Positions 10,253 to 60,451 of a stretch of DNA of 64,000 nucleotides are shown piece by piece. The position numbers and the translations under genes were made by a program. This DNA is from Takakia lepidozioides. Taxonomy: Eukaryota > Plantae > Bryophyta. Positions within the stretch are counted from its first letter, which is position 1. The number at the start of each line of letters is the position of its first letter. A model generated the notes under the pieces. It was not told the DNA's origin. It searched no databases and was given only the letters and a program-made list of their open reading frames with translations. Where the stretch lies: the NCBI GenBank assembly GCA_030704615.1, contig CM060733.1, positions 48,112,001 to 48,176,000 of the forward strand. The letters run 5' to 3'.

Positions 10253-10254
10253 GC

Positions 10255-10432: not shown

Positions 10433-10443
10433 TCGCCCCCCTA
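10433..10443 (-). promoter_or_regulatory. Putative polypurine tract (PPT)
   Basis: Minus strand reads TAGGGGGGCGA immediately before repeat A2, the position expected for plus-strand priming. Confidence 0.6.
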
Positions 10444-10691: not shown

Positions 10692-10979
10692 CTATCCCAA
10701 GCAGTGTGGACACAACCAATCTCCGTCAGGAACCTTCTCAAGAGGTGGTGTCAAGCATCCCATATGCCAACCCCTTGAGCATCGATCACACACCAGCATG
10801 GTGGCTGCCCCTTTGGCAGACCCACAGAGCATGCATCTCAAACCTGCAGGTACCACTGCCAAGTTTGGGTCAACTCTGCCATCGACATTGGGAAGGTGAC
10901 ATGGCGCACAATTACGCACATGGTCCTTCCAAGTCATGCCATCCCGACCCTCCAAGATCAGGACCCCTGAGGGCAACAC
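10692..10979 (-). CDS. Integrase C-terminal PHD finger (frameshifted from the integrase ORF)
   Basis: C4HC3 pattern: CMLC...MLVCDRC..GWHMGC LTPPLEKVPDGDWLCPHC. Confidence 0.92.
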   Translation of the reverse strand: MLPSGVLILEGRDGMTWKDHVRNCAPCHLPNVDGRVDPNLAVVPAGLRCMLCGSAKGAATMLVCDRCSRGWHMGCLTPPLEKVPDGDWLCPHCLG

Positions 10980-10990
10980 CTCTCGAACCC

Positions 10991-13700: not shown

Positions 13701-14109
13701 CGTCGTCTCTCTCCTCCGGTGACAATGGGTCCAATGTCAGGCTCCCAATTGTCCTCCGTAACTGCAACCTTAAGTCCAGTGGGCTTAGAGGTAGAGGACG
13801 CGTCCAGTGGTTGCTATGTTGCAACCTCTTGAGCAGTACTCCCTGCCTGCTCAGTCAATGACAAGGCCTCATCCTGCCCCATCATCTCATCCTTGAGGAC
13901 CTCCTCAACCCGAGAAGAATCCCCAACCTCATCCATCACACCGCCTTGGCTGCCAACTCCCTCTGAACCTCGAGCACCTCCCACGTGTGCCATGGATGCA
14001 TGCACCCCGTGGTCCTCACATGCTCGCCCCCACTCACTGCCTGTACCGTCTCGGTAGGCAGAGAGACCATTGAGGGAAGTGTACTCCGCACTCTGCGTTG
14101 CTCAGCCAG

Positions 14110-15060: not shown

Positions 15061-15199
15061 GCCTTCATCCGGATACTGCCACACAATAGGTGTGGTGTCC
15101 AATGGAGACAACTGAGGTGGTCCTGGTGCAATCCCCGCACTCTCCTCCTCTCCTGACGGTACAAAAGCCTCCACCCAGGCTTGTTGCACCCGTCGATCA

Positions 15200-17982
15200 G
15201 CATCCGCTGCAAATCCTTGCTCGTGCCCCACAATGGAGTCTGAGCAACCATGGTAGGCAACTCCGCCATACCATACATGTCATCCTGCTCTCCCGGAGGT
15301 GGTACATCCTCTGAATGAGCATTGCCCTCAAGCAACTCTCTAGGCCAACTCACTGCCGCTGTGAATGCTGCTAGTGTCGGCATCTTGCCTCGCTGGGCAA
15401 CCGCAACTCCTCCTATGAACGTCACAGGGAGCTGCACACGCCGGCCCTCCCCTGACTGCCATGCAGGCCTATAGGAAGCTGACTCCTCCCAAAAATCCAG
15501 GGTGAAGCCCATGGGGTACAACACTGCCCCACCAACCAGGACATCGTATGAGACTGCGTCTGTCACAATGGCCTTGGCTCGCATCACTGAGCCATCTGTA
15601 GGGTGATCCGGCCGTAGTCTGATAGCCAACTCACGCCGTGTCATGCCCCGAGCCTGCTCCGATCCTCCCAGAGACGTCTGTATCTGGAAAGGACAAGGCT
15701 CCATATCCGCCTCCGTGAGGCCCAAGCCTGCAATAGCAGCTCTGCCCAGCATCAGTGGCTGAGCTCCCGAGTCCAACAAGACCCGCAGTGGCCGGTACCT
15801 CTTGCCTGCCGGTCCACTCAAACAGAAAATGCCATCCTGGTTGTCTAACATGACAACTCCAGGTGTCACCATGGCGCGCTCAATGGCTGGCCTAGCTGGC
15901 AGCTCCATCAACCTGGCAGCTGCAGCTTGCCATGGCGCCGCCGTGGCAGTCTTGACCCTCAAATCCGAGGATCCCTCCGGCACTACACCTCCCACTATCT
16001 CCGCAGAAGATGAAGTAACCTCCCCACTCTCACAGAGTGTAGCTGCCAGCCTGAACACCTCAGCTGGTCTTACCCCCGGCGTCGCAATCATGGTAGCCGA
16101 GAACAATGGAGCCTGGCACACAGATGTGGCCGCTCCTAGCAGCACACTAGCTGCCGTAGCCTTGGCAACACTAGGTAGTGGTGCTACCCGTGTAGCTCTC
16201 CCCAATGGCATAGTAACCTCCGCCTCGGTAACAGTCGAGCGAGAACTAGGTGCCATGGATGGCGTCGACACTGTCTCCGCCAATGTGAATGACTGAGGAA
16301 GCCTAGCCTGACGGCTTGCCTCCCCACGCTGTGGATCCAACTCCACCTCTGCACCTCGTGGCTCAGGAACTCGTGCTGCTCCTCGAGTCACGGCTGCAGC
16401 AGACTCCACCTGCACTAGTGGTAGTGCTGCTCCACACATGAATCCCATGCCTCCCATATCTCCTCCCTCAGGAGCAGGAGGTGGACCATCCGGCCTTAGA
16501 GCCGGTACCACCTGAGCTGTAGCCATGGCAGCGAGCCTCTGCTCTAGCTGCTGAAGCCGGTTGGCCATGCCTTGGTCAACACCCTGACCTCCGCGTCCTT
16601 GGCCACGTTGAGCTTGCCCTTGGCCTCGTGGCTGGCCACCTCGTCCTCTCTGGGCTGCTCCACCTCGCCCCCGGCCACCATTGTTCCCTTGGAACTGGCC
16701 TGGGCGCAACTCAGGATGCAAACCATAACAGGCCTCTTCATGCCCGTGCTTGCCACAATGCCCACACTGCAACTGTGCAGGCTGTGCATGTGCCGACCCT
16801 TTGCCTCCCTCTGGGCAATCCTTCTTGACATGGGGTCCTCCACATGTCCAGCACACACCACATCCGCCCGTTGTTGGCCAGCAAATGAAGGGAGAGACCC
16901 CTGCATCTGAGGTCCTCTCTGCCCTTCCCTGAGCTTCACCTGAGCCCCCTTGTTGCCTTGAGCACGTTGAGGTAGTGGTTGGCTAGGATCACCACTACCC
17001 CGTGGTGTCTCCTTAGCAAATCCACCATGACCACTCGTTCCTCCACCATGTTGAGCTCTATCCGCTCTGCCAGCAAAAACACATTTGCTAAGGTGGGTTG
17101 GGCCGCTTGTAGAGAGTTGCATCCCGCACCCTTCTCCTCAGCTCCTTGTCCAATATCCCATACCAGAATTGGACTGCCTGAGCTTCCGTAACCCCTTGGG
17201 TTACATTTATCAGCGCCTCATGCGAGTGAAAGCCTCCCTCCAAGCTCTCGGTCGGCTTCCGTTGGAACTCTTGCAAGCTCCGCAACTTCTCTGTCCTCAC
17301 CCCCTTGGTAGTTCCCTCTCAACTCTTCGAAGAACTCCACAAACAGGGTTGAAGGCAGGCACGGTGCTAGTGTTGGTGCGGTAGTGGCTTGGGTGGACTT
17401 CGTAGCTACTGTACCACCAGTCCCACTAGTCCCCTGCTACTTGCTGAAGCTGCCGGTGCAGCGGCAGGTGCAGCCACTGCCCTCGTGGCTCTAGTGCCCC
17501 TAGTGATGGAGACATAGTCGGGTGACCAGTACATCCTCCACTCCTCGATCTCAACCTCATGCCCCCGCCTGAACTCATGGTAATCATCCATAGGCGGCCC
17601 CTCAAGGTGCTGAAACAGCCCCTTCCATGCCATGAAAGGTGTAAATAGTTGTGGATTGCGCATTTGCTGCAAATCACACCAACTATCAACTCTTGGATAA
17701 AATCATCCAACTCGATGGTGCCCACCGCCCAGAGTACCTTCGTGGCCTTTTGGTAGCTCCATACATCTCCTCCATTGTGTCCCACAACAATGGCAAAGAA
17801 ACAACTTGCACTGCCGGTATGAGTCCTCCTGATTCACAATCCGAATCAGAACCTTCCGTGGAAGACACAGGAGGTGAAGGTGGCCTAAACCGCACACCTC
17901 GTCTCGTGTACCCACTAGTATCGCTAGTGCTCGAACCGGCACTGTCCCCAGCAACTAGTGGCACCTCCGTGTTGACACTCAA
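15200..17982 (-). CDS. Gag with two zinc knuckles and aspartic protease (frameshifted)
   Basis: CWTCGGPHVKKDC and CGHCGKHGH knuckles, RGG-rich linker, protease VLLDSGAQ...DVLVG. Upstream gag-like pieces (LQEFQRKPTES..., QAVQFWYGILD). Confidence 0.85.
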
Positions 17983-18699
17983 CCGGTCATGAACATGTCC
18001 CTAACCCCTCTCCACAAGGTAACCGGGTAGAGAACCTGTTACGGTTTATGGTTTGGAATACTAAGTTCCTAACATAGCCTACATCTGTACCTGCATCCAC
18101 CGCAAGCACTCCTATGGTTGGCTGGTCATCACCTCCAACCTCACCACAGGAGAAACAATGATGGTCTGGCTGGTCATCACCCCAGCCTCACCATCGACAG
18201 CATGCTCTAGGACTGGCCGGTGATCAAATCCGGACCAATCACCTATAAAAACAAGCGCCCACACAAAACTAGCATGGCGCAAAGTCAAGCATGCAGGTAT
18301 GGAGGGGATCCAAACACAAGAAATCAGAACGATAACTCCCCCACACCAAAAACAACTCCACGGTGTTGCTCCTGCAAGGACACCCCAGCCCAAACCCGGA
18401 CTGACTCTTGCCTCCACCTACGGAAAGGTCTTGGCCTAATGAGAGGGTGGAAACTACGAGGAAGAGAAGCTAAAGCAATGCCTAACCCCAGCATGCCCTC
18501 ATCCCAACACTCTTCCTCTCCTCTCTTCCCTCACTTGCATGACCATGGGAATATCATGAAGATACTCCTCAAACCGCCCTCTACGAGCTTCAAAATTCGG
18601 CCTTCCAGACCACATGCCAGTCCTTAGGCAGTCCACCAGTGCCTCCACGAGTCAGCACAGGCCGTCCACAGGTCAACACGGGCCACCACAGACCAACAC

Positions 18700-18965
18700 A
18701 GGCCCACACAGCTCACTGGTCACAGCCATCACAGTCCCACAGGCCATCAGGCACAACCCGTCACAGCCCCAAAGGCCATAGGCACAACCTGTCACAGCCC
18801 CGCACAGCCCGTCACATCCCCAAAGGCCACGGCACAGCTTGTCACAGCCCGTCACAGCCCAAAGGCCACGGGCACGGCCTGTCACAGCCCCTCACAGCCC
18901 GTCATAGCCCCACAGGCCTCAGGCACGGCCTGTCACAGCCCCTCACAGCCCATCACAGCCCCATC
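18700..18965. repeat. CACAGCCC-based tandem repeat in the retroelement 5' leader
   Basis: Many copies of (gt)cacagccc interspersed with aaaggccac.gcac. Confidence 0.85.
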
Positions 18966-20379
18966 CATGGCCGCTCTGGCAGTTTAGCCATTTCTCCAAG
19001 GGGTTTAGCCACGCCAAGCTAGGGTTTGTGTCTCTTGGACTCTAGGCTTCTTTCCACTGAGCTATGGCGGTTGTGAGGAAATCAGCAAGGTATTCTTGCT
19101 CTTTCGGCTCCCACACACCACCATAGTAGCCCTAAGCCATGAGGTGGTTGCCACAAACCAACCCTTCTTTCTCACTTAGCCTCCCCAAACACGCCACTAA
19201 ACTCAATGGCAAACAACCAAGCCCTGCTGGTTCCCAGCCCTTGTGAGCACTCATTCAAGCCCTCTCCTTGGCCATAACATCTGTCTTAGAGCCTATTCCA
19301 GCCCCCTACACCTGCTGCTTCAAGAGTTGCGCTCCCTTCAAGCTTGAAGTTGAAACCCCAACTCACATAGGCCCTACAAGTGCTTTTCTTTCACTCCAAG
19401 TGGAAACCAGCCCTAGACCTTCCATTCTAGCTCTCTAAAGCTTGAAAACAATAGCCTCAATGGGCTGAAGGCATGCTCCACACATGCCCCACTCTCACCA
19501 TAAGAGAATCAGCTCCTTTGCTTCATTTCTTGCACCCACAAACCTGAAAATACAAGCTTCAGCAGGCTGAAAGCATGCTCCACATGCCCTACAGGGAAAC
19601 CAGCCCCTTCCTTCCTTTCTTGCACTCCCACACCTGAAAGTGCAAGCCTTCACCAGGCTGATAGCATGCTCCACACATGCAACCTCTTCACACAAGAGAT
19701 ATCGGCCCCCTATCTTGGCTCCTTGGTTCCTTGATGCTCTCTAAGACAAGACTAAGCACTCCACAGCCTTTGCCAAGCTCCTGAAACCCTAAGGCTTACA
19801 TTTCCAGCCACAAGACACTTCTCTTGTGGTGCAAGAACTCTTCTTCCAAGCTCTGAAACCCTAGGTGCACATTCCATGGCCTTGCCGCACCTCTTAGCTC
19901 ATGTTCCAGCCCTGCTCTCGCCATGACAAGAGCCCTCTCAATGCTGAAGCTCGAGATTGAAACCCAATCTCACCATACTCCACAAAGTGCACTGATTTGC
20001 CCCAAGCCAAATCAGCCCTTTCGCTTGGTCTTGCAATCCTTCACACAATGAAAGCTCGCATTCCCAAGTCCAGTTCTCAGCTTTGCCACCAAAGCCACTA
20101 TAACCTGCTCTTGACTGGTCCTCTTCCCAATCGTGCTTGCTCATGCATGTACACAATCTGAAACCATCAAGGTGCTCTGGAATTACCTGCAGTATGGTGC
20201 TTTCATCTCTGAAGCTGAAGATCGAACGCCAAGGTTTACCACCTCGTAACCCACATCGCCTCCGCTTCTAACAACCAAGAGCTCCATGGTGCTCCTTGCA
20301 TAACAACTTGGTTTCCCTCATTCTCAAGCAAAAACTACAAGTGCTACAACTAACTCGTATCTAGCACTCATAGATACGA

Positions 20380-20395
20380 GCTGATCTTTCTCGAG
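20380..20395 (-). promoter_or_regulatory. Candidate self-priming primer-binding site
   Basis: Directly downstream of repeat B on the element strand. CTCGAGAAAGATCAGC is 15/16 complementary to 20551-20566 inside B. No TGG-starting tRNA PBS is present. Confidence 0.55.
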
Positions 20396-20712
20396 TGATA
20401 AAGAAGAAGAATACAAGCACGAGCTCACAAATCTGAAGCATAAACTCATGCATATATAACCTCATCACTCAAATACAAGTCAAGCCAAGTGCACCCCACG
20501 CCATGGGGAATCCACACTACGGCGCCATAGCTAGGCGCGGTGAGGCTCAACTCGAGAAAGATGAGCCTCCCGCGCTTGCCGTGAAGATAACCACTCCAGG
20601 GCCTAAATCTGCCTTGACCCCTGGATTGACACTTGGGCCAATCCCAAATGTCAATATGTAAAAGCTAGCTATTTCCTAGCTAGTTTCACACTAGTGGTAA
20701 AATAACTTGACA
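20396..20712. repeat. Split repeat B, copy 2 (317 bp; element 5' terminus)
   Basis: Direct repeat of 9936-10252, followed by TSD GATG. Confidence 0.95.
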
Positions 20713-30544: not shown

Positions 30545-33500
30545 CCTGACCTCTCCCCCCCCTATTGTCTACTCTTTTAATTCCCCCTGTAGACCTGTCC
30601 TTCTCTCCTGTGGCTTGTTAGACTCTTAAGTATATATAGAGTGCTGCGTCGATGTTTATTAGAGTCTGCAGTGATGTCTTTGTGTTCCTCCTCCAATCAG
30701 GGATGAAGAAGAGAATCGTTCTTGGTAAGAAAAAGGTGTCTCTGAGTAAGCTGCGTGTGGTATTAGCTTCACATGTAAGAATGCTTGATTGCAGTGTTTG
30801 CCACTTGTTCAACAGGTTCCCTGTACATTCCTGTGTGTTTTGATCTGCATCCCCGACCTCAGCCACTCTCCTACAGGTCTGTGGTGCAGGTAAGATGCAC
30901 TTTTGTTCTCTTTCTAAACCTATCTTCAGAAGAAAGCTCTTCCATGCACCTGGCTAAGAGGCTCTGCTGTTTCCTTTATTTTCCAAGAGAATCACTAAGA
31001 TTTGTGGAAGGTCCGTTTGAAAGGATTATATACGTTTTTGCTGTGTTCTCAGGCCATACAATGAAGCCTTGTCAGTATAAAAACCTAGAAGCTCAGAAGA
31101 ATGTCTTCAGAGAAGACTTCAGGACTATATTCGGAGGAAGTTCTACTCTCATATGAATCCCTTCTGAAGCAGATACTGGAGCACATTTATTCACTGTAAA
31201 TGATTGGGATACCGCAGATTGTCAAACACCATAAGATTTGGTGCTGTTGTCTTGGTCAGACCCAAGGATGAATTCAGAGATTGATGAGTGTCTCGTGAAA
31301 AGGATGGAGTAATGATGTGATCTGGGGAGGAAAACTGAGTAAATTGGACAGTAGGGAATGCTATAACTCCAATAGATCTTGGAGGAATCCTGAAGAAACC
31401 AGTGAGCTCAGATGTCCTCAGTATAGCCAGTCCTTGTCGCTCTTCAGATGTCGCAAATGAATTGCTGCCCGCCACACAATGTTGCCCAAACTCAACCAGT
31501 TCAGCACACCTTCAATTGCTCTGGGATGTTTTATTGTATTGTAAGGAGAACTTAGCTTTAATGTGAAGAGTTTTAGTTTCTAAATATTCCTCCATTGAGA
31601 AATGTACTTCTTCGGCTCAAATATTGTCAGGTCTTAAAAGGAAAATAACTTAACCCAGCCAAGCAGTTTTATTTTTATTGAAAGCAGAACTGGACCAAGG
31701 CAGGAAGTGATGTCGACAATCGTCATTAGCTTATGGAGCCATTATAGAGCTTATAGCATAGGAGTGGTTGAATAGATAGTGATTGAATCAAATGGAACAA
31801 TAGGAATGTTATGTGATTTGTCAGGCTGAATGGTACATTGCATCCAATGCACATTGTAGTGATGATTATGGTGTATGAAGAAATTTAAAGTGGCATCAAC
31901 GAACTTTTGAAGCAGATCACAGCTGAAGGCTCCTCCCCATGTTTACGAGATTCTGATTCAAGGCGACATGGTAAAGGTGCTTTTGAAAGACCACAGTTTT
32001 GCTCCAGAATGGTCTACTACTGGAGGAAACAATTAGGTGACGATCAAGGCGAACAAGCGAGTATTGTAAGGTTGAAACAATGTAGTGCTTGTACAATGCA
32101 ACTTGACAGTAAATCATACATCCCCAAAATGATCTGAGACGCGGAGTGGGGGAAGCTGATGGAGGAAAACTGATAGCCACAACAACAGACAGTTGCCGAA
32201 TAATCGAAGCTATGGCACGAGTACCAGAGATAGAGAGAGAGCGGACAGGGGGGATGGCTAATATAAGCCACAGGGAGAGAAGTAAGAGGCCCTAGACACG
32301 AAGGAAATTCCCAGAACAGGTCAAGACAGGACAAACGGCACAGGACAAATGAGGAGCAAGAATATGTCTCTTAGAGCGAAAGAGAAGAAGAGACGGCGAG
32401 ACAATAAATCACTTCGGTGGAGGCAGTGTAGGCCAGAGCGGGAAAGCGCGAAGATACAAAGGACGTCTCAATCGAGGACCGAACTAAAAAAAATCCAAAG
32501 AAGAGAGCGAAAACAGACAGAAGAGGATGAACTGGCACGTGATAGAGAAAGAGAGAGGGAAAGAAAGGGAGAGCGAGAGCGAGTGTTACGGCCAAGAGGA
32601 AGGGTAGAAAAATGTATGGGAGATACTACTTAGTCTCGGAGCGGAAATTAGCAACAAAGGAGGAGACCAAAAGAGACGATGAATTGCGATAGAGGAAAAC
32701 AATTTCTATCTAGAGACAAAAGCGCTGGAGACAAGAACCTGCAGACATTGAAACACGGTAAGACAGCACCGCAGCAAACATAAGAGAAAGACCGAGAAAA
32801 AAGAGCGAGAGAGAAGAGAGGGACTGAGAGAGAAACGTGGAGGGGGCAGTTACGCAGGCCCGTCATTGGCCCTTACCCTGCTCTCACCGGCAGTTACGTG
32901 CCGGTCACCCCCATAAACCACCGGTTACTCCCTCCTGCGCAACCAGTCGCCCTCCGTTTGCACCGCCCCTACCCGGTCTCCAAGGTGAAACCGGCAAGAC
33001 TTCTTTCACCGGCAGGCATCATTCCGGGCCGTGAAAAGAATACCGCGCCGGTCCTTGACCGAAGCGGCGTCCTTGGATCACGACACTCGAGCACCCTCAT
33101 TCTCTCTTTCTCCCTCTCTCTCCCTCCCTCTCGCACTTTCTCTGTCGTGGATTTGTGTTACGAAGCTGTGGTGTTCATCGCGCACTGAGCCCTGGCGATG
33201 CTGTGCGGGCTCGTGATGTGTGAGTAAGAGCGAGCGAGAAGCAGTTACGAGATAGGAGATGGGAGAAGAAAGGCTGGAACGGAAACTTGCGAGGGAACGT
33301 TCCAGAAGGTTCCGGAGCGTTGCCTGCGTCCGTGATCGGAAGCGGCAGCCGGATTCCGGCACCACGGAAACTGCCACGTCGACTAGCCGTTTGGAGGTGG
33401 GGCCCTGCCTATCTCGGGCCATGAATACCCTCCGCCACCTGGCTTCTGTGGATTGGTGACAAACTGTTGGACTGGGGTAACAACGTGCGCTGCTGTCTCT

Positions 33501-34249
33501 AGATTTGCTGTCGTACTCTTCTTGGATTCTTTAACTTGCGACCACCAGTTCTCCGGGTTTGGACCAGCGGTCGGTCTGGAAGTTTCATTCGTCGGTGAAA
33601 TGCTTACATCCACTAAGTAGATGTCATCGACTTTGTTGACGACAGAATCCATGGTCTCTCTGCCCACCCGAGACACTCATGGGATAGTGCTGGGCTGCCC
33701 CGCCTCCCACCGATCCCAAACAGCCCTTTTTTTTCATTTTTTCCTAGGCGTGGACGTGGCGAAATTTTTTTGGGACTAAGGGGAGAGGTGGCAGCTAGTA
33801 CATGGCCCACATGGATCTTACTTGGCTATAGGTATGCTATAATATAGTGTGCAATATAGCGATCTCTTCAGAACTTATATATATTACCTAGGCGACACAT
33901 CTCCACTGATGATACTTTTTACACAAGGTTCCACGAGGCCAGTTTTTATGAAAGGAACCTGCATGGGGTTACATACCCTTTCTCATTTTTCAAATACCAA
34001 CCATGGGGAAGGTTCATGTCTCTTATATAACAAACCCCAAGTCAATGCAAGGCTTTGCCAAATATTATGGAGTACAAATAGCTGTTGATGTCAATCCTGT
34101 AAAGTTACAAATCAAACCGAGGGAATCTCACTATAATTGCAGAAATGATGGAAACAATGATAGAGCTGTGGTGTAGCAAATAAAAGTTCTCAGCTGCACT
34201 ACAAGACATCAGTTTCTAATTCTACGCAGAGATTCCATAACGCGCACAT

Positions 34250-35285
34250 ACAGCTCCGCTCCACTTGTCAAAACAGTCATCATAGGGAAAATCGTCCAAG
34301 TCAAATTAGAACTTTTGGCCATACATTCCTACGACCACTAGCAGATGCGGATCCAAAGCGGACCGTAGCTTGTTCTTCAAAAATGACAGAGAGTAAAAGC
34401 ACCGCTTGTCCTCAACGCTACCCAACACATGCACCCATGGCAATTTCTGCAAGCTTCACATACTCCGGGAACGCATGAGTTAGTACTCTAAATGCATCAA
34501 TAGTTCTCCAAATCTTGGTGAGAGAATTGATGTCAAAGGGGGGCTCACGGTAGCCAATACATTGCTTTTTATACACAATTTAAACCTACCTTGTTGGGAT
34601 TCAAGGTCCCGGCGATTCTGCAAGCCCAACATTATCTTCTTCTCTGCGCCCGTGCCAAACACACGTGCTTCACCATACCAATTCTTCAACACATCAAGGT
34701 GGTTTGGAAAACTCTCATCACCGCCTACTTGCAACCAATATTGTGGGCATACTATACCCATGGCATCAAGCACAAAATGTTGGGGAATTTCAGGTTGAGC
34801 TCCCCCACTGCAAGCTGCTTCGCTGCAGCTGCATACCCAAATAAATATATGTTAGTATAGAGAAAGCGATAAAATTCAAAGCATTAAGTCCCCCCCCAAT
34901 GCTGCAGCCCCCCCTCATTTTTTGAGTAAGCTATTACAAGATTACATGAATGACAATAGAAAGGTGAACCTGAAGGGGCAAGTTAATATCACCTGAACAA
35001 TCGATCTTAACTTGCGTCACGAAGATGTTCCATGCATCCTTCTTAAACATAGTTCTTCAGAGCCTATGGGGCTACATCATCTGCCGCATTGTCAGCTTCA
35101 GCCTCCACATTGTCATTGGCCCCAATAGCATTCACATTGGCATTGGGCACGGTTGCACCACTCACCTAGTCAACCCAAATGTGCTCACTGTTCACAATGA
35201 AAGCCAATTGGTGTGAGTTGTCATTCAGGTCAGCCACCCACTTGAGGTGAATCTGCTCATGGCTACCCGAGTCCTCTATTTAGAG
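34250..35285 (-). mobile_element. hAT transposase, C-terminal part (degenerate)
   Basis: EQIHLKWVADLN..., LDAMGIVCPQYW, and hATC dimerisation-like EYVKLAEIAMV.VLGSVED.RCF..LSFLKNKLR. Confidence 0.75.
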
Positions 35286-35369
35286 AGGGTCCTATTGTCG
35301 TGGAAGCAGTTATAGCGCTTAAAAAAAGAGGTATAGAAAGAATGGAATGGTCAATGTGAAACTTACTGA

Positions 35370-36720
35370 GGTTTTCTTATTGAAGAAGAGGTGAAAAAAA
35401 AAGGTTGGGTGAGTCATCATGAATCTTACTTAGGGATTCTTGCATGAACAAGAGGCAAGAAAAGTTTGGATGCTCATTGTCAAGCTAGCTGACGTTTCCA
35501 GTATTTCATCCATGGTGGATGGATGATGGATGGATGAAATATTTAAGGAGAGGTTAAAAATAATAAGGATGGGCAAGAACAGGCCCCAAAATTGACCCCT
35601 CATTGTGAAACAGGCAATGGTTTTTGTTAATATAGATGAGGTGAAAATTAAACAGATGGTCATCTTCAAGCTTATTTAGGCTTTGTTTGTGAAGATGTGT
35701 AACAAAATGAGCGGTTTATTGTGGAACTTGTTCAAGTTTGTGTTATTGAAGATGAGGTGAAAAAAAAACACATGGTCATTGTGATTGCTTATTTAGGGTG
35801 TCTTTGTGAAGAAGAGGTAAAAAAAAACATTGAGCTATCCTTGTGAAACTTGTTTAGGATTCTGTTATTGAAGAAGAGGTGAAAAAAAATCAGATGGTCA
35901 TCATGAATGTTTATATAGGGTTTGTTTGTGAAGAAGAGGTGAAAAAAACAGTTAAGCTCTATCATTGCCAAACTTGTTCAGGTTTCTGTTATTGAAGAAG
36001 AGGTGAAAACAGAAATCAGATGGTCATTATGAATGTTTTTAGGGTTTGTTTGTGAAGAAGAGGTGAAAAAATTGAGCTCTCATTCTCAAACTTGTTAAGG
36101 TTTCTGTTATTGAAGAAGAGGTGAAAAAAATATTAGATGGTCATCATGAATGCTTATTTACGGTTTGTTTGTGAAGAAGAGGTGAAAAAAAAAGTTGAGC
36201 TCTATCATTGTCAAACTTCTTCAGGTTTCTGTTATTGAAGAAGAGGTGAAAAAAAAACTTGAGCTCTACCATTGTCAAACTTCTTCAGGTTTCTGTTATT
36301 GAAAAAGAGGTGAAAAAAAACCAGATGGTCATCATGAATGCTTATTTAGGGTTTGTTTGTGAAGAAGAGGTGAAAAAAATTGAGCTCTATCATTGTCAAT
36401 CTTGTTCAGGTTTCTGTTGATGAAAAAGAGGTGAATAAAAAATCAGATGTCATCATGAATAAATTAGGGTTTGTTTGTGAAGAAGAGGTGAAAAAAAACT
36501 TGAGCTCTATCATTGTCAAACTTCTTCAAGTTTCTGTTATTGAAGAAGAGGTGAAAAAAAAATCATATGGTCATCATGAATGCTTATTTAGGGTTTGTTT
36601 GTATAGAGGACGTGGAAAACAAATGAGCTATCATTGTGAAACTTGTTCAGATGCCTGTTATTCAAGAAGAAGTGGAAAAAAAAACAGATGGTCATCATGA
36701 AGCTCATTTACGCAATGCTT
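35370..36720. repeat. Minisatellite of about 55-60-bp units anchored on GAAGAAGAGGTGAAAAAA, with two alternating subunit types
   Basis: Alternating 'cagatggtcatcatgaatgcttatttagggtttgtttgt' and 'ttgagctctatcattgtcaaacttgttcaggtttctgttatt' spacers. Confidence 0.9.
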
Positions 36721-36949
36721 CTGTAGAGGCCGTGAAAAAATAAAATGAGCTTTCATACTGACACTTGTCCATGTTTGGCAGGCCCTCGAACAAAAAATAA
36801 ATTTATTTTTATTTTTATTTTTTATTTTATTTTGGGCCCGAAGCAATATTGGGGGTGGGGGCAGAAGTGGTGTGCGTTGACGCACTCAATTTTAAAGGCT
36901 CGTTAACCAAACCCGATGAAAAAATAAACTACCTTTCATGACGAGACAT

Positions 36950-37590
36950 CGCCTGCTTGTCTAGATTTAAGAACTGTGTATACATGTTCTACACACAAGG
37001 CAACCCTTTCCGACATTGTGAAAAATCGTAACATATGCAACACTACTCGATATTGCCAATGTCTCGCTGCAAAAGTGTCCGTACCTCACCAGGACCTAGT
37101 GTCGCCTGGTGAATGATTTGGTCTCTTTTGGGATCACAATACATCCTGCGCAAAAAGATGTAGTAAAGATGCTTGCAGGGAACCCATTTTCCCTCTCTTT
37201 CCTAGACTTTCCTCACGCATGCACACGAAGTCGGGACAGGTACACCTCGGAAAATTTCCCACCGTCACCTAATAGGCCCTGTCGTGCAAAACAAACCCAG
37301 ATGTGGCCAAAGTATAAATCCGTTCATACCCAGGTGAAGGTACTTCCATAGTTCCTGTTACCCGAGCCTGAAGTAGTCTAGCCGATTCCACCTTCGCAAC
37401 GTGATCAGGCCCCGAAGCCACCCGATGCACTGTTTTGTCATTCCTTCTCATGGGATACGAAGTATCGTCTGGAGGAGGCACCATAGCAGCAAAGCCACCA
37501 AGAGTCGACGCCACATATCGGTACAGACAAAAGTCGGCGTCCTCCAACTTGCCAATCTCCAGTTCATCAATGATCATCCTGAAATCATGA
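36950..37590 (-). pseudogene. Spliced remnant ending in a SWIM-type zinc finger (MULE-associated)
   Basis: Exon-like blocks with GT/AG borders. The last reads CCICYDFSQCRKGLPCVEHVYTVL (C-x-C-xn-C-x-H-like). Confidence 0.45.
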
Positions 37591-37689
37591 TCATGAAGAA
37601 ATTGAGTGCGTTGACGCACTCAGTTCTCCCGGGGGGGAGAGGAGAGAGAACCAAAAATAAAAATAAAAATAAAAATTGGGTATCATACA

Positions 37690-38607
37690 ATCTGTCACGA
37701 TAAGATGTCGTCGGGAGCTGGCTAGCTACTTGAAAGCCTCGGGGATGCGGATTATCAAGACTTGGAACTGTGTCAACAGCCTATATCTGATGAAGGGGGA
37801 TTGCCCAGGGCTGAAGGTGGGTTTCAAATACTTTGTTTTTATGTCTTCTCTGTTGAAGTTCCACTGTAAACAATGTTATGAAGTCATGTTGTTCGCACTG
37901 CCTGAATTGAGTGCTTCAGCGCACTCAGTTATGGCGGTGCATGAGGAATGACTCTGAACCAGTTCCATCTAGAATGGGTCTGTACTCCCACCCAAATGTG
38001 CTATAAAACATTCCTCACTAATTATTGTCATCTTCATCGCAGACCCGTCTATTTGAGGCCGTGTGTCTCGTGAGGGTACATCCACTGTTGACTCCCACCA
38101 CAGTGGTGGAGTTCGAGCTTCATGGGGGAGGATGTTTCATAAACGAGAGGTTCGATCCTGTCGTCGACGACATGCACTACAACTATGTTGACTCCAACGT
38201 ATGTTTGCGAAAGCCAAATGGAACTCCTTGGAGAAGGGCCCGTGAAAAAAGCCCGGCTTTTATCCAAACGATCGTTGAGAGTTGTTCTCAGCCAGGGGCC
38301 CGCATCATAGATCTCACTCTTGACACAGGTTTCTCTTCTTGCCTTTGTCATCGATTTCTTTTCTTCTGCACCTTCTTTACTCAATATTCTAAAACTCTAA
38401 TCCTTCAATCTGTCTCTTGCAGGCGCTTCTTACCATGCTTGCAAGGCAGGTGGCAGACACTTGCTTGGTATGGAAGGAGATGCAGATATTTTCACTGGCC
38501 TCCTTGCCGAGTTGCAAGGGGGCGCGTCTACCTCCAATGTCAAGGATGTCACTGCGCAAATTGATATCCTCGACGGAGACGACAAGGACCTGGACAATGA
38601 CTTTCAT
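37690..38607 (+). pseudogene. Spliced fragment of a beta-class N4-cytosine/N6-adenine DNA methyltransferase
   Basis: Removing intron 38329-38422 (GT...CAG) gives REKSPAFIQTIVESCSQPGARIIDLTLDTG|ASYHACKAGGRHLLGMEGD. This follows the N6_N4_Mtase C-terminus pattern (xKPxxLxxxLIxxxSxPGDxVLDPFxGSGTTxxAAxxLGRxxIGxExD). No DPPY/SPPY motif is seen. Confidence 0.65.
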
Positions 38608-39629
38608 GTGAGTAAGTTCATTTTCTGTCTATTTGATCCCTGTATATATGCTCTGTCGCGTCCCCTTCTGTTGTCTGATTGCAAGAATGTGAACGCACTC
38701 CCGTGGCCCCTGTCTTCCATATACTTGAGGGACTTGTGCTGGAGCCCACCTCCTAATTATGTCCTTCCCGATTACGCGGAAGGCATTGCTCGTGTGCAAG
38801 CAGCTGTGCTTTCTCCCCTACCCTTGCGTTGGAGTTCCAGGAAGACGCTTAGGCACCTCCGCGCAAAGGTCTTCATAGATAATAGTGCAGCAGTTTCAGG
38901 TTGTAGCAATACTTCTAGCAGTTCATCAGATTTAGGTGGTAGCAGTAGCAGTGTTGACACCACCTATGGATGTACTTGAGGGCATTCATTTATGGAACAT
39001 GAGGGGACACACTCTCCGTTTTCCGTTACACCACCATTTCTCTTCCCACCATCCGTTGTAATGAGCACGGACTACAATGAAATTCACATCCCTGAATTGA
39101 AACATTCTCTCCCCCGCGTCCTGCGAATTTGAAAGTGTTTTCCTTCTAAACATTGCTCTCCAATTCAACCGTGTGCATTCAATAAAAGTTTTTCAACAGA
39201 GATGAATATATGCATAGTCCAGTAGACAGTCATTCGACATATACCATCACACCAATATTTGGTTGGATGGATGGAGGATGAATGTTTTTGGATGGATAAA
39301 CCCCGATTGGATGTACACTGTGGATGAATGTTGCATGCATGGATGGTCCCATAGATGTTGTCAGTGCGCAGTATCATGCACAGGGGCGGGATGGCGAGGT
39401 TCACTGTCGGGGTTGAGGTGGGTCCCTAAGGCTGACAAGGGTTAGGGTTTTTGTTTGGGGTTGCAGGGTTAATATGGATGAAGAGTGTTTCTGCGGTAAT
39501 GGATCCTCTTCCATGGAAATAGAAGCCGCATCTTTCCCAAATTCATGCCACGTGTCATGGGCTCACGCCAGGCTCCTGGGCTCACAGGCTCTTGGGCTCA
39601 CGTGGCTAGGCTCACACTCTAGCATCCCC

Positions 39630-41231
39630 CGCAGCCACATGCCACAACAACAAACCACATTGGAAAGTGCAAATGCCACAGAACATCTAGAAAAAGACAT
39701 ATATATAAAGCATATTGTACGTCAGGTTCAGCTGTACTGCTCACCGTAGCCGACTTCTTTTCAGCACTGTCAATCTTCATTTTGGCCAATAGGGGTATGT
39801 ATTCAGCCAAAATCCTCTTCAGCGGCTCAATGATCGAAATCCATCGTGTTTTCATGTTCTTCAGCATTTTCAGACCATTTGTTTCCATTATGTCTGCAAG
39901 TTTAGTGAACTCCATGTATCTCTCGGGGCTGTGGGCAAAGTAAGTATGGTTGGTATGAAGCAAAGCTTCAATACTGCTTATAACAATTCCCAATTGAGAT
40001 AGTGTCTTGAGGGCCAAATTGCACCTATGAGCCATGCAATGGCCTCCTATACATAATGTAACATGCTTTGAAGTAATCTGTTTCGTAAATCCATTCCTCA
40101 CATCTTGAAATGTGCTCACCCCATCAGCCCCAAACCACAACAATTTCTAAGCTATACCACTATCTGAAAGTTCTTCACATTTCCTCAAAGCATCCATGAT
40201 AACAACTCATATCAAATTATCAACCCTTGACCCATCCACAATTTTCTGAAGGGATCAGATCATCATGGGGACTCTTACCCAATTTTGTATAATGTAAGCA
40301 TGTATACTAATCCAAGATCCATTATGCACAGATATTACATCATCATAGGTCAGTGCTATATATTTGGCAGCCTTCACACATGACAGCATAGCATCCTTCA
40401 CTTCATAATTGTATATGAACTCATCTGTAATCCACCCTGATGTGTCACTCCAATGCACCTTTGGGTTGTTGTGGACCTCAAGAAACACAAACAAACTCTG
40501 CATTCTCTCATACTCAGTCATTGGACGTCCACCATAAAGCACATGGAGTATAATGGCAAACTAAACCCTCTTTCTATCCTTCTCAGCTCTGTTTATCACA
40601 CTACCTGCTCTAACCAGTGGTCCCACGAGCAGGAAAATATACAAAGCAACATTCATTTTATGTTTGCCATCAGTAGTAATGTACCACCCCCATTTCCTTA
40701 CCTTATACTTGGGTATATCATTCTATGCCCTCATCTTCCCCTCATGCTTGAGTAGGGTGTCCCACGTGCAGGGGGCCATGACTTTGGGAGACTTTTGATA
40801 GTGGAGCACACCTTGCACCTCACAAGATGAAGATTGTCATCTGCTGCAAGCCTTCCCTCAGCCCATTGCAACTTTAATGCCCACTCCAACTGAAACTTTT
40901 TGATCAAGTCATAGGTAGCTTTGAACTTCTTCAAAGGTACACAGTCCTGCAAATCATCATCTTCCTCACTATCATGTGTATCAGAAGATACGACCACCAC
41001 AGTTTCATGTGAACTTTGAGAAGAATTTGACACTAATACCCCTAGTGGTGGGGGTGAGGGAACTAACAAATGAGAGTGGGTAGCATTGTGAGGATTAGCC
41101 CTAACCTGTCTATTCAGGGGTAGGGAGGACGGTTCTAAAGTACCCTCAACATCAGTCTTCATAAAGTAGAGACATGGAATCACAAACAAACCGCAGGGGC
41201 CAGCATTGCCCATATTCCTGGAGCTCACCAA
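39630..41231 (-). mobile_element. hAT transposase (ZNF862-like), N-terminal and catalytic part (degenerate)
   Basis: BED-like W...W...RCKVCS, IALTYDDV, FGADGVSTFQ, HCMAHRCNLA, YFAHSPER and MKTRWIS. Confidence 0.8.
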
Positions 41232-54123: not shown

Positions 54124-56655
54124 TCACCAATAATCCCCACAAGAACAGGCCCCATCTTGGAAGTGGTGAAAGCGATTGGGATCCCGTACAACAACTACCC
54201 GCGCAACAATCTTTGATATGAACTTAGTGACCGTGTGACAGTCATTACATACACGAAGGTTCTTGGTAATTCTGATAGGCGTCCCAGGGGACGTGCTGAT
54301 GAGCCCAAAAGCAATGGCCAGCTTCTCGCTGTGGTGGCCAAGAGAAATTTCCTTTTGCTCCTCCTCCACATCATGGAATACAAAGCGCGTGTCAGGCACA
54401 TATCCAAACTCCTTCATCTGCTCGGACAATCTCTTCAGCTCGTTATGGATTTCCTCAATGTGTGGATGCAATTTGTCTTCTACAACAAATGTATGCACAC
54501 GGTTGTCAACCTCTATGCAGCTGCGCCCTGGCTCCTTTCTGACGCCTACCTCCTCCATCATTTTCCTCACGTTTGCTTGATCGTCCACCCTCCCAGCCGC
54601 AGAATAGATGTTTGATAACAGCACGTATGCTGCAGCATGCTGTGGATCCGTCTCGAGAATGCGTTTGGCTGCACGTTCAGCTACCTCCACATTGCCAAGA
54701 TTTCTGCAGGCACCCAGCAAGGCTCTCCACACCCCAGCATCCGGTTTCATTGGAATTTTGCTGATGAAGTCCTCTGCCTCATCCAATCGCCTTGCACGAC
54801 CAAGAAGGTCTACCATGCAGCCAAAGTGCTCCATTGTAGGAGTAAGGCCATGAGCTTGACTCATAGAATCAAAGTAGCGACAGCCTTCATTCACTAGGCC
54901 CCCATGGCTACATGCAAAGAGAAGAGATATAAAGGTGATACCATTCGGCTTCAAGCCTTCCTCTTGCATTTGCTCAAATAGTCGCACAGCCTCCTTACCA
55001 CAACCATGTTGCGCACATCCTGCAATCATTGCAGTCCATGAGACAACATCACGTTCAGCCATTTTGTCAAATACTTGACGAGCATCCTTCATGCTCCCGC
55101 ATTTGGCATACATGTCAACAAGGGCAGTCTCCAGAATGATATCTGGCACAATTCCAGCTTTGCTGATGTCAATATGAACCTCTTTGCCCTTTTTCAGGGC
55201 TCCCAAGTTGGCACAGGCATTGACAGCGCAATTGAAAGTGACCTTGTCAGGCCTAACCCCTTCCCGTATCATTTGCTCATAGATCTCAAAGGCCTCCTTA
55301 CCACACCCATGCTGAGCATATCCTGCAATCATGGTGTTCCATGAGACCACATCTTGTTGAGTCATGTTGTTGAACACTACACGCGCATCCTTCATGCTCC
55401 CACATTTGGCATACATATTTACAAGGGTGTTTTCTAAATTTATTTGTGGTGGAATTCCAATTTTGCTGATGTGAGCATGGACCTCTTTGCCCATTTCCAG
55501 GGCTCCTAGGGTGGCACACGCGTTGAGGACGCAAATGAAGGTGACCCTATTGGGCCTCACCCCTTTTCGGATCATTTGATTATAGATCTCAAGAGCCTCC
55601 CTACCATACCCGAGCTGAGCGTAGCCTGCGAGCATGGCATTCCATGAGACCACATCTTGTCGAGCCATGTTGTCAAACACTTGGCGTGCTTCCTTGATAC
55701 TTCCACACTTGGCATACATGACAGCAAGGGCAGTCTCCAGAATGATATCTGACCCAATCCCAGCTTTGAGGATGTCAGCATGTAACTCTTTGCCCTTTTC
55801 AAGGGCTTGTATGCTGGAACATGCATTAAGAACACAAATGAACGTTACATTGGTCGGTGTCACCCCTTGGCGTTGCATTTGCTCATAGAGTCCAATAGCC
55901 TCCATACCATTCCCATGCTTGGCATATCCTGCAATCATCGCACTCCATGACACCACACTTCGTTCAGCCATATTGTCAAACACTTCACGTGCATCCTCCA
56001 AGCTCCCACATTTGGCATACATGCTAACCAGGGTGTTTTGCAGATTTATCCCCGGAACAATTCCACTCTTGATGATGTCAGCATGCAACTTTTTTCCCTT
56101 TTCCAGACCTCCTAAGCTGGCACACGCATTGAGAATGCAAATGAACGTCACCTTGTTCGGCGTTATCCCTTCTCTTTGCATTTGTTCATAGATGTCGAAA
56201 GCCTCCTTACCACACCCATGCTGGGCATATCCTCCTATCATTATAGTCCATGTGAACAAATTCCGCTGAGGCATTTTGTCAAACACTTGGCGTGCATCAA
56301 CCACACTCCCGCATTTGGCATACATATTGACAAGGGTGTTCAGTAGAAAGATGTTTGGCTTGAATCTACTTTGGATAATGTGGCCGTGAACTAGTTTTCC
56401 TGCTGCTAGGTCTTTCATGTTCATGCACTCCTGCAAGACACAAACGTAAGTATCGGAGTCTGCTCGAATGACCTCTTGGCACAAAATGTGGAGCGCTTCT
56501 TTCACTTGTCCTTTCTTACATAGTGTTCTCACTTTCTCACAAGTGCCCAAAGAGTGCTCGCTGACTCCCTCTCTTGGTTCAAAATCAGTGGCAATGGTGG
56601 ACGTGTTACCCTTGATACCAGTGTGATGTCCATAACACAACTGTGCCTGATTCAT
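54124..56655 (-). CDS. PLS-class pentatricopeptide repeat protein with E and DYW deaminase domains (organellar C-to-U editing factor type)
   Basis: 843-aa single-exon ORF with five MYAKCG-containing PLS triplets, PG box (KEPGRSCIEV), HSEKLA, CNDCH and terminal DYW. Confidence 0.97.
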   Translation of the reverse strand: MNQAQLCYGHHTGIKGNTSTIATDFEPREGVSEHSLGTCEKVRTLCKKGQVKEALHILCQEVIRADSDTYVCVLQECMNMKDLAAGKLVHGHIIQSRFKPNIFLLNTLVNMYAKCGSVVDARQVFDKMPQRNLFTWTIMIGGYAQHGCGKEAFDIYEQMQREGITPNKVTFICILNACASLGGLEKGKKLHADIIKSGIVPGINLQNTLVSMYAKCGSLEDAREVFDNMAERSVVSWSAMIAGYAKHGNGMEAIGLYEQMQRQGVTPTNVTFICVLNACSSIQALEKGKELHADILKAGIGSDIILETALAVMYAKCGSIKEARQVFDNMARQDVVSWNAMLAGYAQLGYGREALEIYNQMIRKGVRPNRVTFICVLNACATLGALEMGKEVHAHISKIGIPPQINLENTLVNMYAKCGSMKDARVVFNNMTQQDVVSWNTMIAGYAQHGCGKEAFEIYEQMIREGVRPDKVTFNCAVNACANLGALKKGKEVHIDISKAGIVPDIILETALVDMYAKCGSMKDARQVFDKMAERDVVSWTAMIAGCAQHGCGKEAVRLFEQMQEEGLKPNGITFISLLFACSHGGLVNEGCRYFDSMSQAHGLTPTMEHFGCMVDLLGRARRLDEAEDFISKIPMKPDAGVWRALLGACRNLGNVEVAERAAKRILETDPQHAAAYVLLSNIYSAAGRVDDQANVRKMMEEVGVRKEPGRSCIEVDNRVHTFVVEDKLHPHIEEIHNELKRLSEQMKEFGYVPDTRFVFHDVEEEQKEISLGHHSEKLAIAFGLISTSPGTPIRITKNLRVCNDCHTVTKFISKIVARVVVVRDPNRFHHFQDGACSCGDYW

Positions 56656-59600
56656 GCCTGCAATTCTGCACCATTAAAGACTATTAGCAATAAATCTTTT
56701 AACACCACATTCACATGGTATTCATCACAGCTGCTGGATACTTCAAAGAAAACTCTCTTCCTGAGGACAGGCTCCTGGCTACAAAGGGTACCAAAGTACT
56801 GCAAGAATAAACAGACCAATCCTTCTATATGAATTGAAACCCTTAAGCCATCACCAAAAACACTACCCATTGTATTCTTGGCCTGGAGCTCCATGCTGTA
56901 CATCCACATTAGAATCATCACCGGATTGTGCTCGACCTTGTAACATGGCACCTAGCTCTGCTTTCACCCAAGGAGGGTTCAATGCATTAGCAATCCAAAG
57001 GACCTCTTTTGTGTGCTTATGTCTGAAGTTTGGATATCTTGGACTTTCCTGTGGCAACCACCGGTAGGCAGCTCAGCAGCCTAGCTTTAACCAGGACCTT
57101 ACATTGGCCATGCTACAACCAACAAACTTCCAAGCATTTTTGAGATAAATAGGGAACAACTCTGAACAACGTACTGATAGCAACATTTAGAACCGCTCTT
57201 GCCGCTTTTCTGTCGCAAAGAGGAAAAATGTGGTTGATGTAAGCAACTGGAGATCCATCGAATCCTCACAACATCTTCATGACAACTTCGGTCCAAAACC
57301 CCCATAACAAACTCTTTTGTGTCCTAAAAAACGCCACACCTTTTCAAAATTGTTGTCGCACCATTGGGAAGGATCTGAGAAGAACTCCTTCCAGAGCTGC
57401 TCTATGCCTCTTGCTTGACCTGCCCACAAGAACTACAAGAATATGAGCAGTTGGCCAACTTTCTAAACCCTCAGTCTGTACTGAGGAGTGCCAGGGCTCA
57501 AACATACAGCTTCAGAAGTCCTTCTCGATGTGGGTCAAGTGAGGATTGAGGAATGCTACTTTGTAGGCCATTAAATTCATCTCTCTCTTTCTCCTACGGC
57601 CGCGGATCGACAAAGGGAAAGGCTGCCTCCCTCCGTCTTCAAGGGAAATGCAAACATATCCATTTGCATCACCCTCCTATGCAAAAGTTGCTTTCCAACT
57701 CGCTCGTCACCCCTGCTACTATCTATAGCTGTGAGCTTTTGGCCCCTCGGTTTTTTGGTGGGAGACAAATCTGGAATCTCTACAAGCATCTTTCCTCCAA
57801 GGTGTACTTGGGGCTAGAGGTACAACATCATCTCAGATTTCAGACACTGCGTACCACTTGAACTCGAAGCATATTTCGACTCTCAATCTTCTTCTCAAGG
57901 CTGTGGTCTCTCCCCAAAAGTAGCTGCCAGTCCGTCCCCTCACAACCTCTAAGAGACTCAAGCAGCTGGTTTGAAGACCTCTCGGCCTGCTTGGACCTCC
58001 AATTTCTTTGACGGACAAGGCCTGTCCATTGCGTCCGCCTGGAAACCAAGAATCTTAGTCGTGACACCTTTCTAGTCCCCTGCGATGATAAACTCCTGTT
58101 ATCTCCATCTCTTCTACTGGCATTGGGTGGGCTCACACACCCTGCCGGTAGATGGGGGTGTGCTGGCCGCTTGTCCCGACTTGCACTAGAGATGACAGAT
58201 GGGGGATTGAGACTGAAGAACATTTTTTCGTTCATTCTCCTCTCTACTATGAGATCCAGAGATGATACTATTTCCAATTCCGGGACAGCCAATCCCTTGC
58301 TGAGGTCTTTTATGAGGGCGAGAAATGCTTGGCAGCATATCTGCATTGTTGTTCTGGCTGCTTGTTAAGGGCCCCACTTTCTTTCTTTCTTCATGCTGCT
58401 TTCTTTTGTCCCATAAGCTATTTGAGTTTCCAGTGGACGTTATACAGTCTCTCTATGTTTTCCAATGCTCTTTTTCCATCTCTCCAAGACACATATGCTA
58501 AAAACGGAAAGGAGAGAAAAGTGCCAATCAGAAGATACCGAGGAGCTGATGGGAGGAGGAGGAGGGTGTCAATAACCTCGCCTTCCTCTACAGCCCTTGT
58601 GCAACCATATTGTGAGCTTCTTCGACGACGGGTAGCTCTGAGGGATGGGTCCATGACAATATGCAGCCCGACCCACACAATCTGGAGCGCAAAAGCACAC
58701 GCAATAATTACATGTCTATACCTTTCTTCCGTTTTCTTGCAAGCCGGGGCGTCACCGCTATCCCTTGCGACTCTCTCGGGCCCCGCATTGCCCAGGTGGA
58801 TGCACATTTCAGTTCCACAGCCTGGCCCTGTAATCTGCTGCATGATGTGAGGCCTCCCGCCCCTTCAAGACACGACGAAGTCGGGGCCTTGGGTACAGCC
58901 TCTGCCTGCGTGCTCAGGAAAGCAGCGGAGCAAGCTGCCATCACCGCGCCTTTTAGACAAAGCTCACCGAGACGACAGTGTGTCACCTTCAACTTCCCTT
59001 CCCTCCGAAATCATACGCTACAACACACGGTATACTGTAAGACGGGTGCCAATTCCAAATTCCAAAGGGCATCGCAGAAAGATGGTCATGGCCTCTTCAC
59101 GAGTATCAGAATTTTATTGCCACTGCCATCAGCGTTCCAGCGTCCCTGCATCTGCAAGCTTCATGCAAATGTGATCCTGAAAAGAGTGCAACCTTCTTCA
59201 TCTTCTTCGTCTTCCTTCATAAACATGATGACGCACGGAAGGCCTGTCGGTAACACACCAGTGCTGCATGCAGGGTCTATGCATGCACACATAGAATCCA
59301 CGTTGAGCTACATATCACCATCCATCCATCCAGAATTTTCCTGAGGAGTTTTGTCAGGCTGCAGATTAGGTCCTCACAGTCTATGTAAGTGATGCTCTGT
59401 CTCCAATCCCATCATCCTCTACACTTACGAGGATTGATCGACAGCTACAAGGAGCTGCTGGAGATTCCAGCGAGCATCATCAACTCCGCTTCTCTCACTC
59501 CTCTCATCAGTCCCCATTTCTGAACAGCCCATGATCTCCCCGGGACGCAATCCGTGGGACCTCATCAGGAACAACACTTCCCTGCAGGTTGAGCTGGATC

Positions 59601-60451
59601 CGGTGGAGCCCACTCTGAACTCGTATGAGTCCAGTCATCATCTTAAATGCAGAGTGGCACAGGCTCAAGAAGAAGTAACATCTGGCCACACCTCGGCAGG
59701 AGGATGATGATGATGACTGGGATTTTTCTCTGGTCTTGGGTGGGGGCACACATGGATGGCTGGGCTACATGTGAGCAGGTTGCTCATCAGTCTAGTAAGA
59801 AGCTCTTGCAAATTGCATGATGGGCGTGGCAATTTCCTCTTCTTTTCGTGGGTCTTCCCTCGCAGCAGATGTGCTTTCCCTGTGTAACAATCTGTTTCCA
59901 AATTGAGAACAATAGAAACTTTGACATACACAAGCACACCTATATCATGCCGGATGCCACATAGCAGGAAGCATTTGTAAGATGATGGTGCTTGGAAGCT
60001 GGAATGCATGCATGTCTCCACACGCATTACATACGTACAGTGAACCCGTCACTGGACTTTGTCTGCAGGAAAGACAGCCAGAGAGCAAGGAGGAGAATTT
60101 GTGACGCCCACATAATTAGAGAGACAGGAAGAGAGAGGGAGAGGAAAGGGATTGTTTTGGGACAAGGAGGCGGGATAGAGAGTAAGGTGAAAGCTAGTTT
60201 GAAACTTTGAGGTGCTGAGAAAGGCAAAGTGGCTAATAGGGACAGAATCGAGGGAAGGATCTTCACAGTGGCCAGAGATTGAATGCACCGAGCAACTTTA
60301 AGCCGTCTCGCATACAGACAGCTTTGCCTCCGTGAACAATTAGTAGAGTACACAATGCTCTGGCTTTGCTAGCATCAATCAATTCATAAATATAAGTTGA
60401 CAATTGCTGACTGAATTGCAGCAAGAGTAGGGAGGAGACGAGAAGGAAAAA

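Follow-up and report, generated by a model that had tools for sequence, protein, structure and literature searches.

The window, a stretch of 64,000 nucleotides of Takakia lepidozioides DNA, contains a fragment of a gene resembling the beta-class amino-methyltransferases (MTases). On balance, we read this fragment as a dead, 5'-truncated and spliced piece of a beta-MTase-like gene that resides in what is likely a non-autonomous derivative of a plant DNA transposon, the intact gene being likely to encode an impaired pseudo-enzyme. The preliminary description had presented it as cargo of a MULE-like transposon and as the remnant of a 4mC/6mA writer. The window otherwise has the character of plant nuclear DNA, including retroelement remnants, a MYB exon, a mitochondrial carrier gene and PPR-like genes.

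The MTase-like gene in the window consists of exons a to d (Table 1), which are homologous to the last four exons of a relative on the contig L001; the gene therefore spans approximately 37700-38979, further than first described. Intron 2, which had been proposed to split motif I (DLTLDT-G-ASY, within the Gly), was confirmed by its length, phase, T-rich composition (47% T and 36% GC, compared with approximately 24% T and 51% GC in the exons beside it) and site shared with L001; it begins with GT and ends in CAG. The proposed end of an upstream exon at 37816 was likewise confirmed, with a GT at 37817 and homology to the relative P0038 from 37700 onward. The phase-0 join of exon a to the acceptor at 38042 was the sole frame aligning to the relative's motif IV exon: its score was reached by 1 of 5000 shuffles, and the scores of the other two frames by 3894 and 263. 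Exon c was 49% identical to its counterpart in L001 (E 2e-9). Other copies of the repeat have one additional T after 38601, so the window copy is likely frameshifted at the end of this exon. The intron preceding exon d is 26 nt longer in other copies, and none of 5000 shuffles equaled the score of exon d against the last exon of L001. Two runs that we guessed to contain RNA yielded short pieces only, with no joint across either intron.

Table 1. Coordinates of the element and of the gene fragments within it (positions in the window).
Feature	Position	Strand	Remarks
Dispersed high-copy element	35264..39630		probably a non-autonomous deletion derivative; left end cut off in the window copy
Degenerate ~60/121-bp repeat array	35323..36780		near the left end
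Imperfect palindrome, three occurrences	~36870, ~37604, ~37909 (within 36870..37930)		core TGCGTTGACGCA or a variant; all in predicted introns
SWIM-pattern (CxC-x17-CxH) exon	36934..37579	-	probable end at 36934, where a donor-like site lies
Predicted intron of the SWIM gene	37580..37688	-	GTATGA...TTTCAG; T-rich; one palindrome inside
Inferred breakpoint	37689..37706		5'-truncated SWIM gene (-) meets 5'-truncated MTase-like gene (+)
MTase-like exon a	37700..37816	+	3' third of the relatives' motif IV exon; motif IV gone
Intron 1	37817..38042	+	226 nt; GT-AG; phase 0; identical site in L001
MTase-like exon b	38043..38328	+	95 open codons; finishes in the first half of motif I; 40% identical to L001
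Intron 2	38329..38422	+	94 nt; GT-AG; phase 1; inside motif I; identical site in L001
MTase-like exon c	38423..38611	+	second half of motif I, acidic residue of motif II, acidic tail
Last exon d	~38686-38979 (start approximate)	+	C-terminal region outside known families; homolog of the final L001 exon
Right end	39560..39630		six GCTC words in 85 nt, then terminus ...AGCATCCCCC

The relationship to known MTases was examined with a local HMM of five phage or plasmid beta-class enzymes, which were chosen for likeness to the C-terminal half of the intronless relative P0017, so that matches to that half are favored. The spliced window peptide scored 30.4 bits against this model, compared with 5.7 for the unspliced and -3.0 for the reversed sequence and 4.5 for the best of 1000 shuffles, as expected if the MTase half becomes visible only after splicing, as had been claimed. 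A profile of the family aligned over its C-terminal half to beta-class MTases with a profile-profile probability of 97.3% (hhalign, E 3e-11), and this SAM half, with motifs X, I and II, did so free of gaps. The motif IV exon, which had no part in the choice of these MTases, also matched them (hhalign 34.8%, E 4e-4) and reached 0.92 to PF01555 clusters in the Atlas; the window fragment reached such clusters at 0.87, which we treat as a lead only. When P0017 was compared by tblastn with a phage collection, all 28 matched records were annotated as DNA methyltransferases. A cluster mate of P0017 is called a 'DNA modification methylase' by its source, and a further relative, P0065, matched a PHROG DNA methyltransferase at E 1e-4. 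In L001, motif IV lies N-terminal to motif I, which is the permuted order of the beta class.

Several other searches returned little. Single exons of the window gene had no Pfam match, exon b alone drew only noise from the phage collection by tblastn (20 records, E 3-10), and PDB sequence searches gave nothing below E 0.07, with M1.HpyAVI at E 0.54. AlphaFold models of two half-proteins were of low confidence (pLDDT 44.7 and 49.2); the second of these, from P0065, returned no Foldseek row at E 0.001, and eight of its first ten rows were beta-class MTases with weak values of E 0.06-0.1. The profile check proposed earlier was thus positive with the HMM and hhalign, but the PF01555 gathering score of 26.7 was missed in scans of exon-sized fragments, in which the best relative scored 15.6 bits. 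The bacterial-type ancestry put forward in the preliminary description is nonetheless upheld by the splice-dependent HMM match, the profile-profile alignment and the phage records, and, as judged from sequence, the window fragment is almost certainly a homolog of beta-class amino-MTases.

A phmmer search with exon b returned 17 matches, of which P0004 and P0016 were left out as repeat artefacts. The 15 homologs that we count are genes predicted on contigs from ENA, JGI and Logan, at 32-50% identity. Similarity ends directly after the D-x-T-x-x-T of motif I in 12 of them, whereas two run straight into exon c sequence with no intron there and one departs from the frame earlier; the matching part starts at Q-T in nine, corresponding to the phase-0 acceptor of the window. 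The relatives P0015 (on a 1.19-Mb contig), P0017 and P0063-P0066 represent a subfamily lacking the motif I intron. The L001 contig (3711 nt) carries nearly the whole gene in at least seven exons, is 39% identical to window exons a-c over 188 residues, and has introns at the same two sites, one ahead of exon b and one within motif I. Its three upstream exons (L001 296-1601) encode approximately 200 additional ordered residues and a low-complexity linker; they had no match in Pfam, PHROGs or NCBIfam and are a possible targeting domain. A metagenome scan reduced 79 pattern matches to one locus. Word-based protein searches among six candidates, and among 7995 candidates of 388-2000 aa, revealed no longer relative, which is weak evidence, and pattern scans sensitive to close relatives only revealed none in viral contigs or GTDB genomes. 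The family is real and, apparently, not yet described: a literature search of openly available main texts found no paper on it, and the supplements of PMC4738411 and PMC8885841 could list members.

The catalytic region (DPPY/SPPY) was reported as missing from the window copy, and we agree, as no [DNS][PILM]P[YFWE] string occurs in the six frames of 35200-39700 and tblastn of the motif IV part of P0038 against the window gave no match. Motif IV of L001, located in an upstream exon, reads D-I-P-E, where phage enzymes have D-P-P-Y/F, D-I-P-Y or D-L-P-Y; the strand preceding it aligns with the corresponding phage MTase strand. A word-based search with this exon gave six clusters with 25 listed members, 24 of which could be read at motif IV; these belong to a single subfamily, with identities of at least 71% to L001 and of 39% to the window gene. 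All 24 are non-aromatic (D-I-P-E in 22, D-M-P-E in one and D-I-H-E in one), and the first position is Asp in every case and Ser in none. A further departure precedes motif I: all five phage MTases have His in their HPTQKP-type motif, and the family has other residues in its place. Distant relatives still share the Lys that precedes motif I, the motif II acid and the motif IV Asp. Motif I itself follows D-[LWMCI]-[TSI]-x-x-T-G in the family, with G, S, N, E or L at the first Gly position, at which the window has D. The 'degeneracy' of motif I in the window copy, which is odd as had been observed, is therefore mostly the family's normal form rather than decay.

The aromatic residue of motif IV holds the target base by stacking (PMC4738411); in a model of the bdelloid enzyme N4CMT, the Tyr stacks on the target base (PMC10406627), and a Ser/Tyr double change of its SPPY to APPA abolishes activity (PMC8885841). 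Accordingly the proposed search for copies with a catalytic motif IV, which found only non-aromatic forms in the one subfamily that covers it, speaks against the description of the gene as a 4mC/6mA writer. From these residues, the family is quite probably catalytically impaired on DNA, while an active sister subfamily may exist beyond the one read at motif IV. A parent element that encodes a working 4mC or 6mA enzyme marking its own copies, with only the window derivative dead, would fit the conserved fold order and the Asp, Lys and motif II acid kept in distant relatives, as well as the open frames of most motif IV clusters. Phage MTases with D-I-P-Y and D-L-P-Y exist, so that a single position departs, and retrotransposons with conserved C5-MTases have been described (PMC5890265). 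We nevertheless consider it improbable given the lack of any aromatic or Ser-first motif IV among the 24, the replaced His and a motif I whose first Gly may also be S, N, E, L or D. In its widest form, it would picture an old DNA transposon lineage of non-seed plants with a seven-exon beta-MTase gene, whose D-I-P-E form, or at least certain subfamilies, would write 4mC/6mA on their own copies and so escape 5mC silencing; this we regard as equally improbable, though the D-I-P-E form might act by another catalytic route.

Another substrate appears more doubtful still. A divergent active MTase acting on RNA, protein or a small molecule could have Glu in place of the base-stacking aromatic, and it would retain the SAM-side acid seen here; eukaryotic recruits of bacterial amino-MTases have often shifted to RNA, and some clades have unusual strand-4 motifs (PMC4738411). 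However, the L001 exons contain no RNA-binding or other known domain, motif I is loose and our searches turned up no such D-x-P-E enzyme, which makes this explanation very unlikely.

The gene fragment is embedded in a dispersed repeat. In the DNA runs, contig depth increases at the bin 35223-35393 and drops at the bin 39539-39705, and in the public contig set X3 it is 30-108 times that of the unique flank (median 75), a depth in contigs that does not equal copy number. The element was aligned by 663 contigs in X1 and 593 in X3; X1-X3 are one sample, which may be the window's own source. At 39630, 12 X3 contigs exit into unlike flanks (agreement 0.43), and contigs in X5 and X6 likewise stop at 39629-39630. 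A second study contributed X5, a plant metagenome, in which a 1928-nt contig covers 37684-39502, has 58 differences, contains both introns and crosses the breakpoint described below. A Helitron was rejected since the alignments stop 8-9 nt beyond the nearest CTAG. Other copies extend at least 57 nt to the left of 35264, so the window copy has lost its left end. The adjoining segment (33700-35266) is another, moderately repeated sequence that is cut at 35266, where the element starts; as five X3 contigs extend it differently, a deletion appears to have taken both its continuation and the element's left end. We tabulated 45 differences, taking the best-supported among several hundred rows; in 30 of them the window copy shows C>T or G>A, which is what a methylated copy in decay should show.

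We are highly confident that 35264-39630 is a mobile element. Its assignment to the MULEs is another matter. MULE hallmarks are TIRs and a target-site duplication of 8-11 bp (PMC6446971), and we found neither an inverted match of the right end nor an 8-10 bp duplication in 33000-36900, the left end being missing in this copy. No domain of a DDE transposase was found from 35264 to 39630, though the deletion may have removed one, and Rfam gave no match in 35000-40000. Carriage in a DNA transposon is consistent with a dispersed, high-copy repeat with a sharp right end, as proposed, but the element is no more than a candidate MULE, a SWIM-pattern fragment being all that was seen. The SWIM zinc finger is not confined to MULEs, and the helices following the pattern presumably resemble more the MEKK1/ZSWIM2 type. 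Adjacent to the right end, decayed transposase-like frames of lower depth (39700-41240, minus strand) have no Pfam match; from their motifs we take them to be probably of the hAT type. As a separate, lower-depth repeat, they were rejected as the transposase of the element.

The SWIM-pattern exon lies on the opposite strand to the MTase-like gene. In the window copy it contains a stop (37269-37271) and a frameshift near 37187, both absent from other copies, which have at least 93 extra nt near 37563-37570; the CxC-x17-CxH pattern spans the frameshift, and the split halves of the exon gave no Pfam SWIM match. The minus-strand intron donor at 37688 and the start of MTase homology at 37700 suggest that both genes were cut at one point. 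A single breakpoint near 37700 would have removed the 5' halves of both, motif IV included, and the window MTase copy, already described as likely dead, is dead with near certainty. Of the three palindromes, two lie in introns of the SWIM gene and one in an intron of the MTase-like gene, which suggests one parent. A/T-rich inverted arms at 36790-36890 and 37600-37680 were rejected as TIRs of a small element, as there is no break in depth across them and their positions match predicted introns. A 70-nt palindrome-bearing piece (36855-36924) was also seen in contigs of X6 and X7, two runs guessed to be RNA that come from separate studies. Its foreign flanks are shared by both, which places the palindrome in a further sequence context. 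Elsewhere in the window, a cluster of palindromic repeats with the same core (7700-8470) may be a related non-autonomous element or a set of shared binding sites.

These junctions bear on how the gene came to lie in the element. In a Pack-type capture, a non-autonomous element would have joined, as DNA and with their introns, pieces of two host genes, one for a SWIM finger and one MTase-like; the MTase-like family would then belong to the host. Two gene pieces joined at one point with their introns, an element devoid of transposase and the lack of one in the 3.7 kb of L001 agree with such an event, and MULEs often acquire foreign DNA (PMC6446971). The shared intron palindrome argues instead for one parent, L001 has a comparable GCTC-rich end, and the many subfamilies at 32-50%, several of them with broken frames, look more like transposon cargo than a single host gene; we therefore regard capture as unlikely. 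The GCTC-rich stretch of L001 lies approximately 600 nt downstream of the gene and has seven GCTC words in the final 85 nt, where the window background would give 0.36, with no alignable DNA similarity to the right end in the window. It hints, weakly, at carriage by a transposon outside the Takakia genome. The intron palindromes of both genes, together with the GCTC-rich ends of the window element and L001, provide a hint that the gene belongs to the element and not to the host, and the MTase-like gene is probably an accessory gene of the parent element.

We propose the following history for such an accessory gene. A bacterial or phage beta-class MTase would long ago have passed into a lineage of non-seed plants, acquired introns along with N- and C-terminal extensions, and been recruited by an element that also bore a divergent SWIM-finger gene, the parent holding the two as a divergent pair. 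One internal deletion near 37700 would then have taken both 5' halves and both promoters, and the deletion derivative would have been amplified in trans to tens of copies. The intact protein would keep the fold together with the acidic residues of motifs IV (Asp) and II (and with them part of the SAM site). As the aromatic that stacks on a flipped base is absent, we suggest, by analogy with the MTase domain of DIRS1-type elements, a helper that binds DNA or chromatin for the element and not a 4mC/6mA writer.

Bacterial and phage beta-class MTases (PF01555; YhdJ-like, M1.HpyAVI, M.RsrI and CcrM) share the order of motif IV before motif I with this family, which differs from them in its spliceosomal introns, its long N- and C-terminal extensions, a motif IV ending in Glu and the loss of the His before motif I. 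In the sources available to us, eukaryotic beta-class amino-MTases outside MT-A70 appear rare and comprise DN4MT1, N4CMT and two small permuted clades. MpDN4MT1a/b of Marchantia is likewise a prokaryotic-type beta-class amino-MTase in a non-seed land plant; it is described as a tandem pair with TSPPY, sperm-expressed and active (bioRxiv 10.1101/2021.02.12.428880), and by that description it is set apart from our family, which has D-I-P-E and sits in a dispersed repeat. N4CMT of bdelloids, also a horizontally acquired, permuted beta-class MTase in a eukaryote, is described as a host gene with SPPY and a chromodomain that marks transposable elements (PMC8885841, PMC10406627); compared by description, our family has neither the chromodomain nor SPPY. 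N4CMT was the top, non-significant Foldseek row for the P0065 model (E 0.06). Among the permuted clades with unusual motifs of Iyer et al., the two described have Ser or are found only in Naegleria (PMC4738411).

The closest functional analog is the MTase domain of DIRS1-type elements, a transposon-borne amino-MTase fold with substituted catalytic residues that was judged likely inactive (PMC4738411). That domain is reported to be PCIF1-derived, unpermuted and part of a retroelement's intronless polyprotein (PMC4738411), whereas the window gene is permuted, intron-rich and separate, and lies in a DNA-type repeat. Methyltransferase genes are also carried by Dnmt3-containing Gypsy and DIRS elements and by a Dnmt5-type LINE of green lineages; unlike the window gene, these retroelement genes encode C5 enzymes whose catalytic residues are conserved (PMC5890265). 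One element of the window belongs with this second group: a Ty3/Gypsy element at 9936-20695, the LTR segments of which are 99% identical (9936/20396), includes a C5 DNA methylase domain on the minus strand (13936-15279; PF00145, E 5e-13) with the P-C-Q motif kept. It resembles KnitGypsy-Dnmt3 (PMC5890265) but occurs in a land plant. The earlier statement that two classes of transposable element carry two methylation chemistries is thus borne out for the Ty3 C5-MTase domain but not for the beta-MTase-like gene, activity of which is not in evidence. Two PPR-like genes toward the end of the window (54124-56673, minus strand, and 62243-64000) are 83% alike in inverted comparison, and an intronless mitochondrial carrier ORF (60431-61375, PF00153) lies between them.

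Together, these observations would add a further intron-rich eukaryotic family of the beta-class fold, with many distant subfamilies. If its protein is an accessory pseudo-enzyme, it would parallel the inactive MTase of DIRS elements as a case in which mobile elements retain the fold after the chemistry is lost, perhaps as an aid in binding DNA or countering silencing. Should any subfamily prove active, plants would have in it a source of genomic 4mC/6mA.
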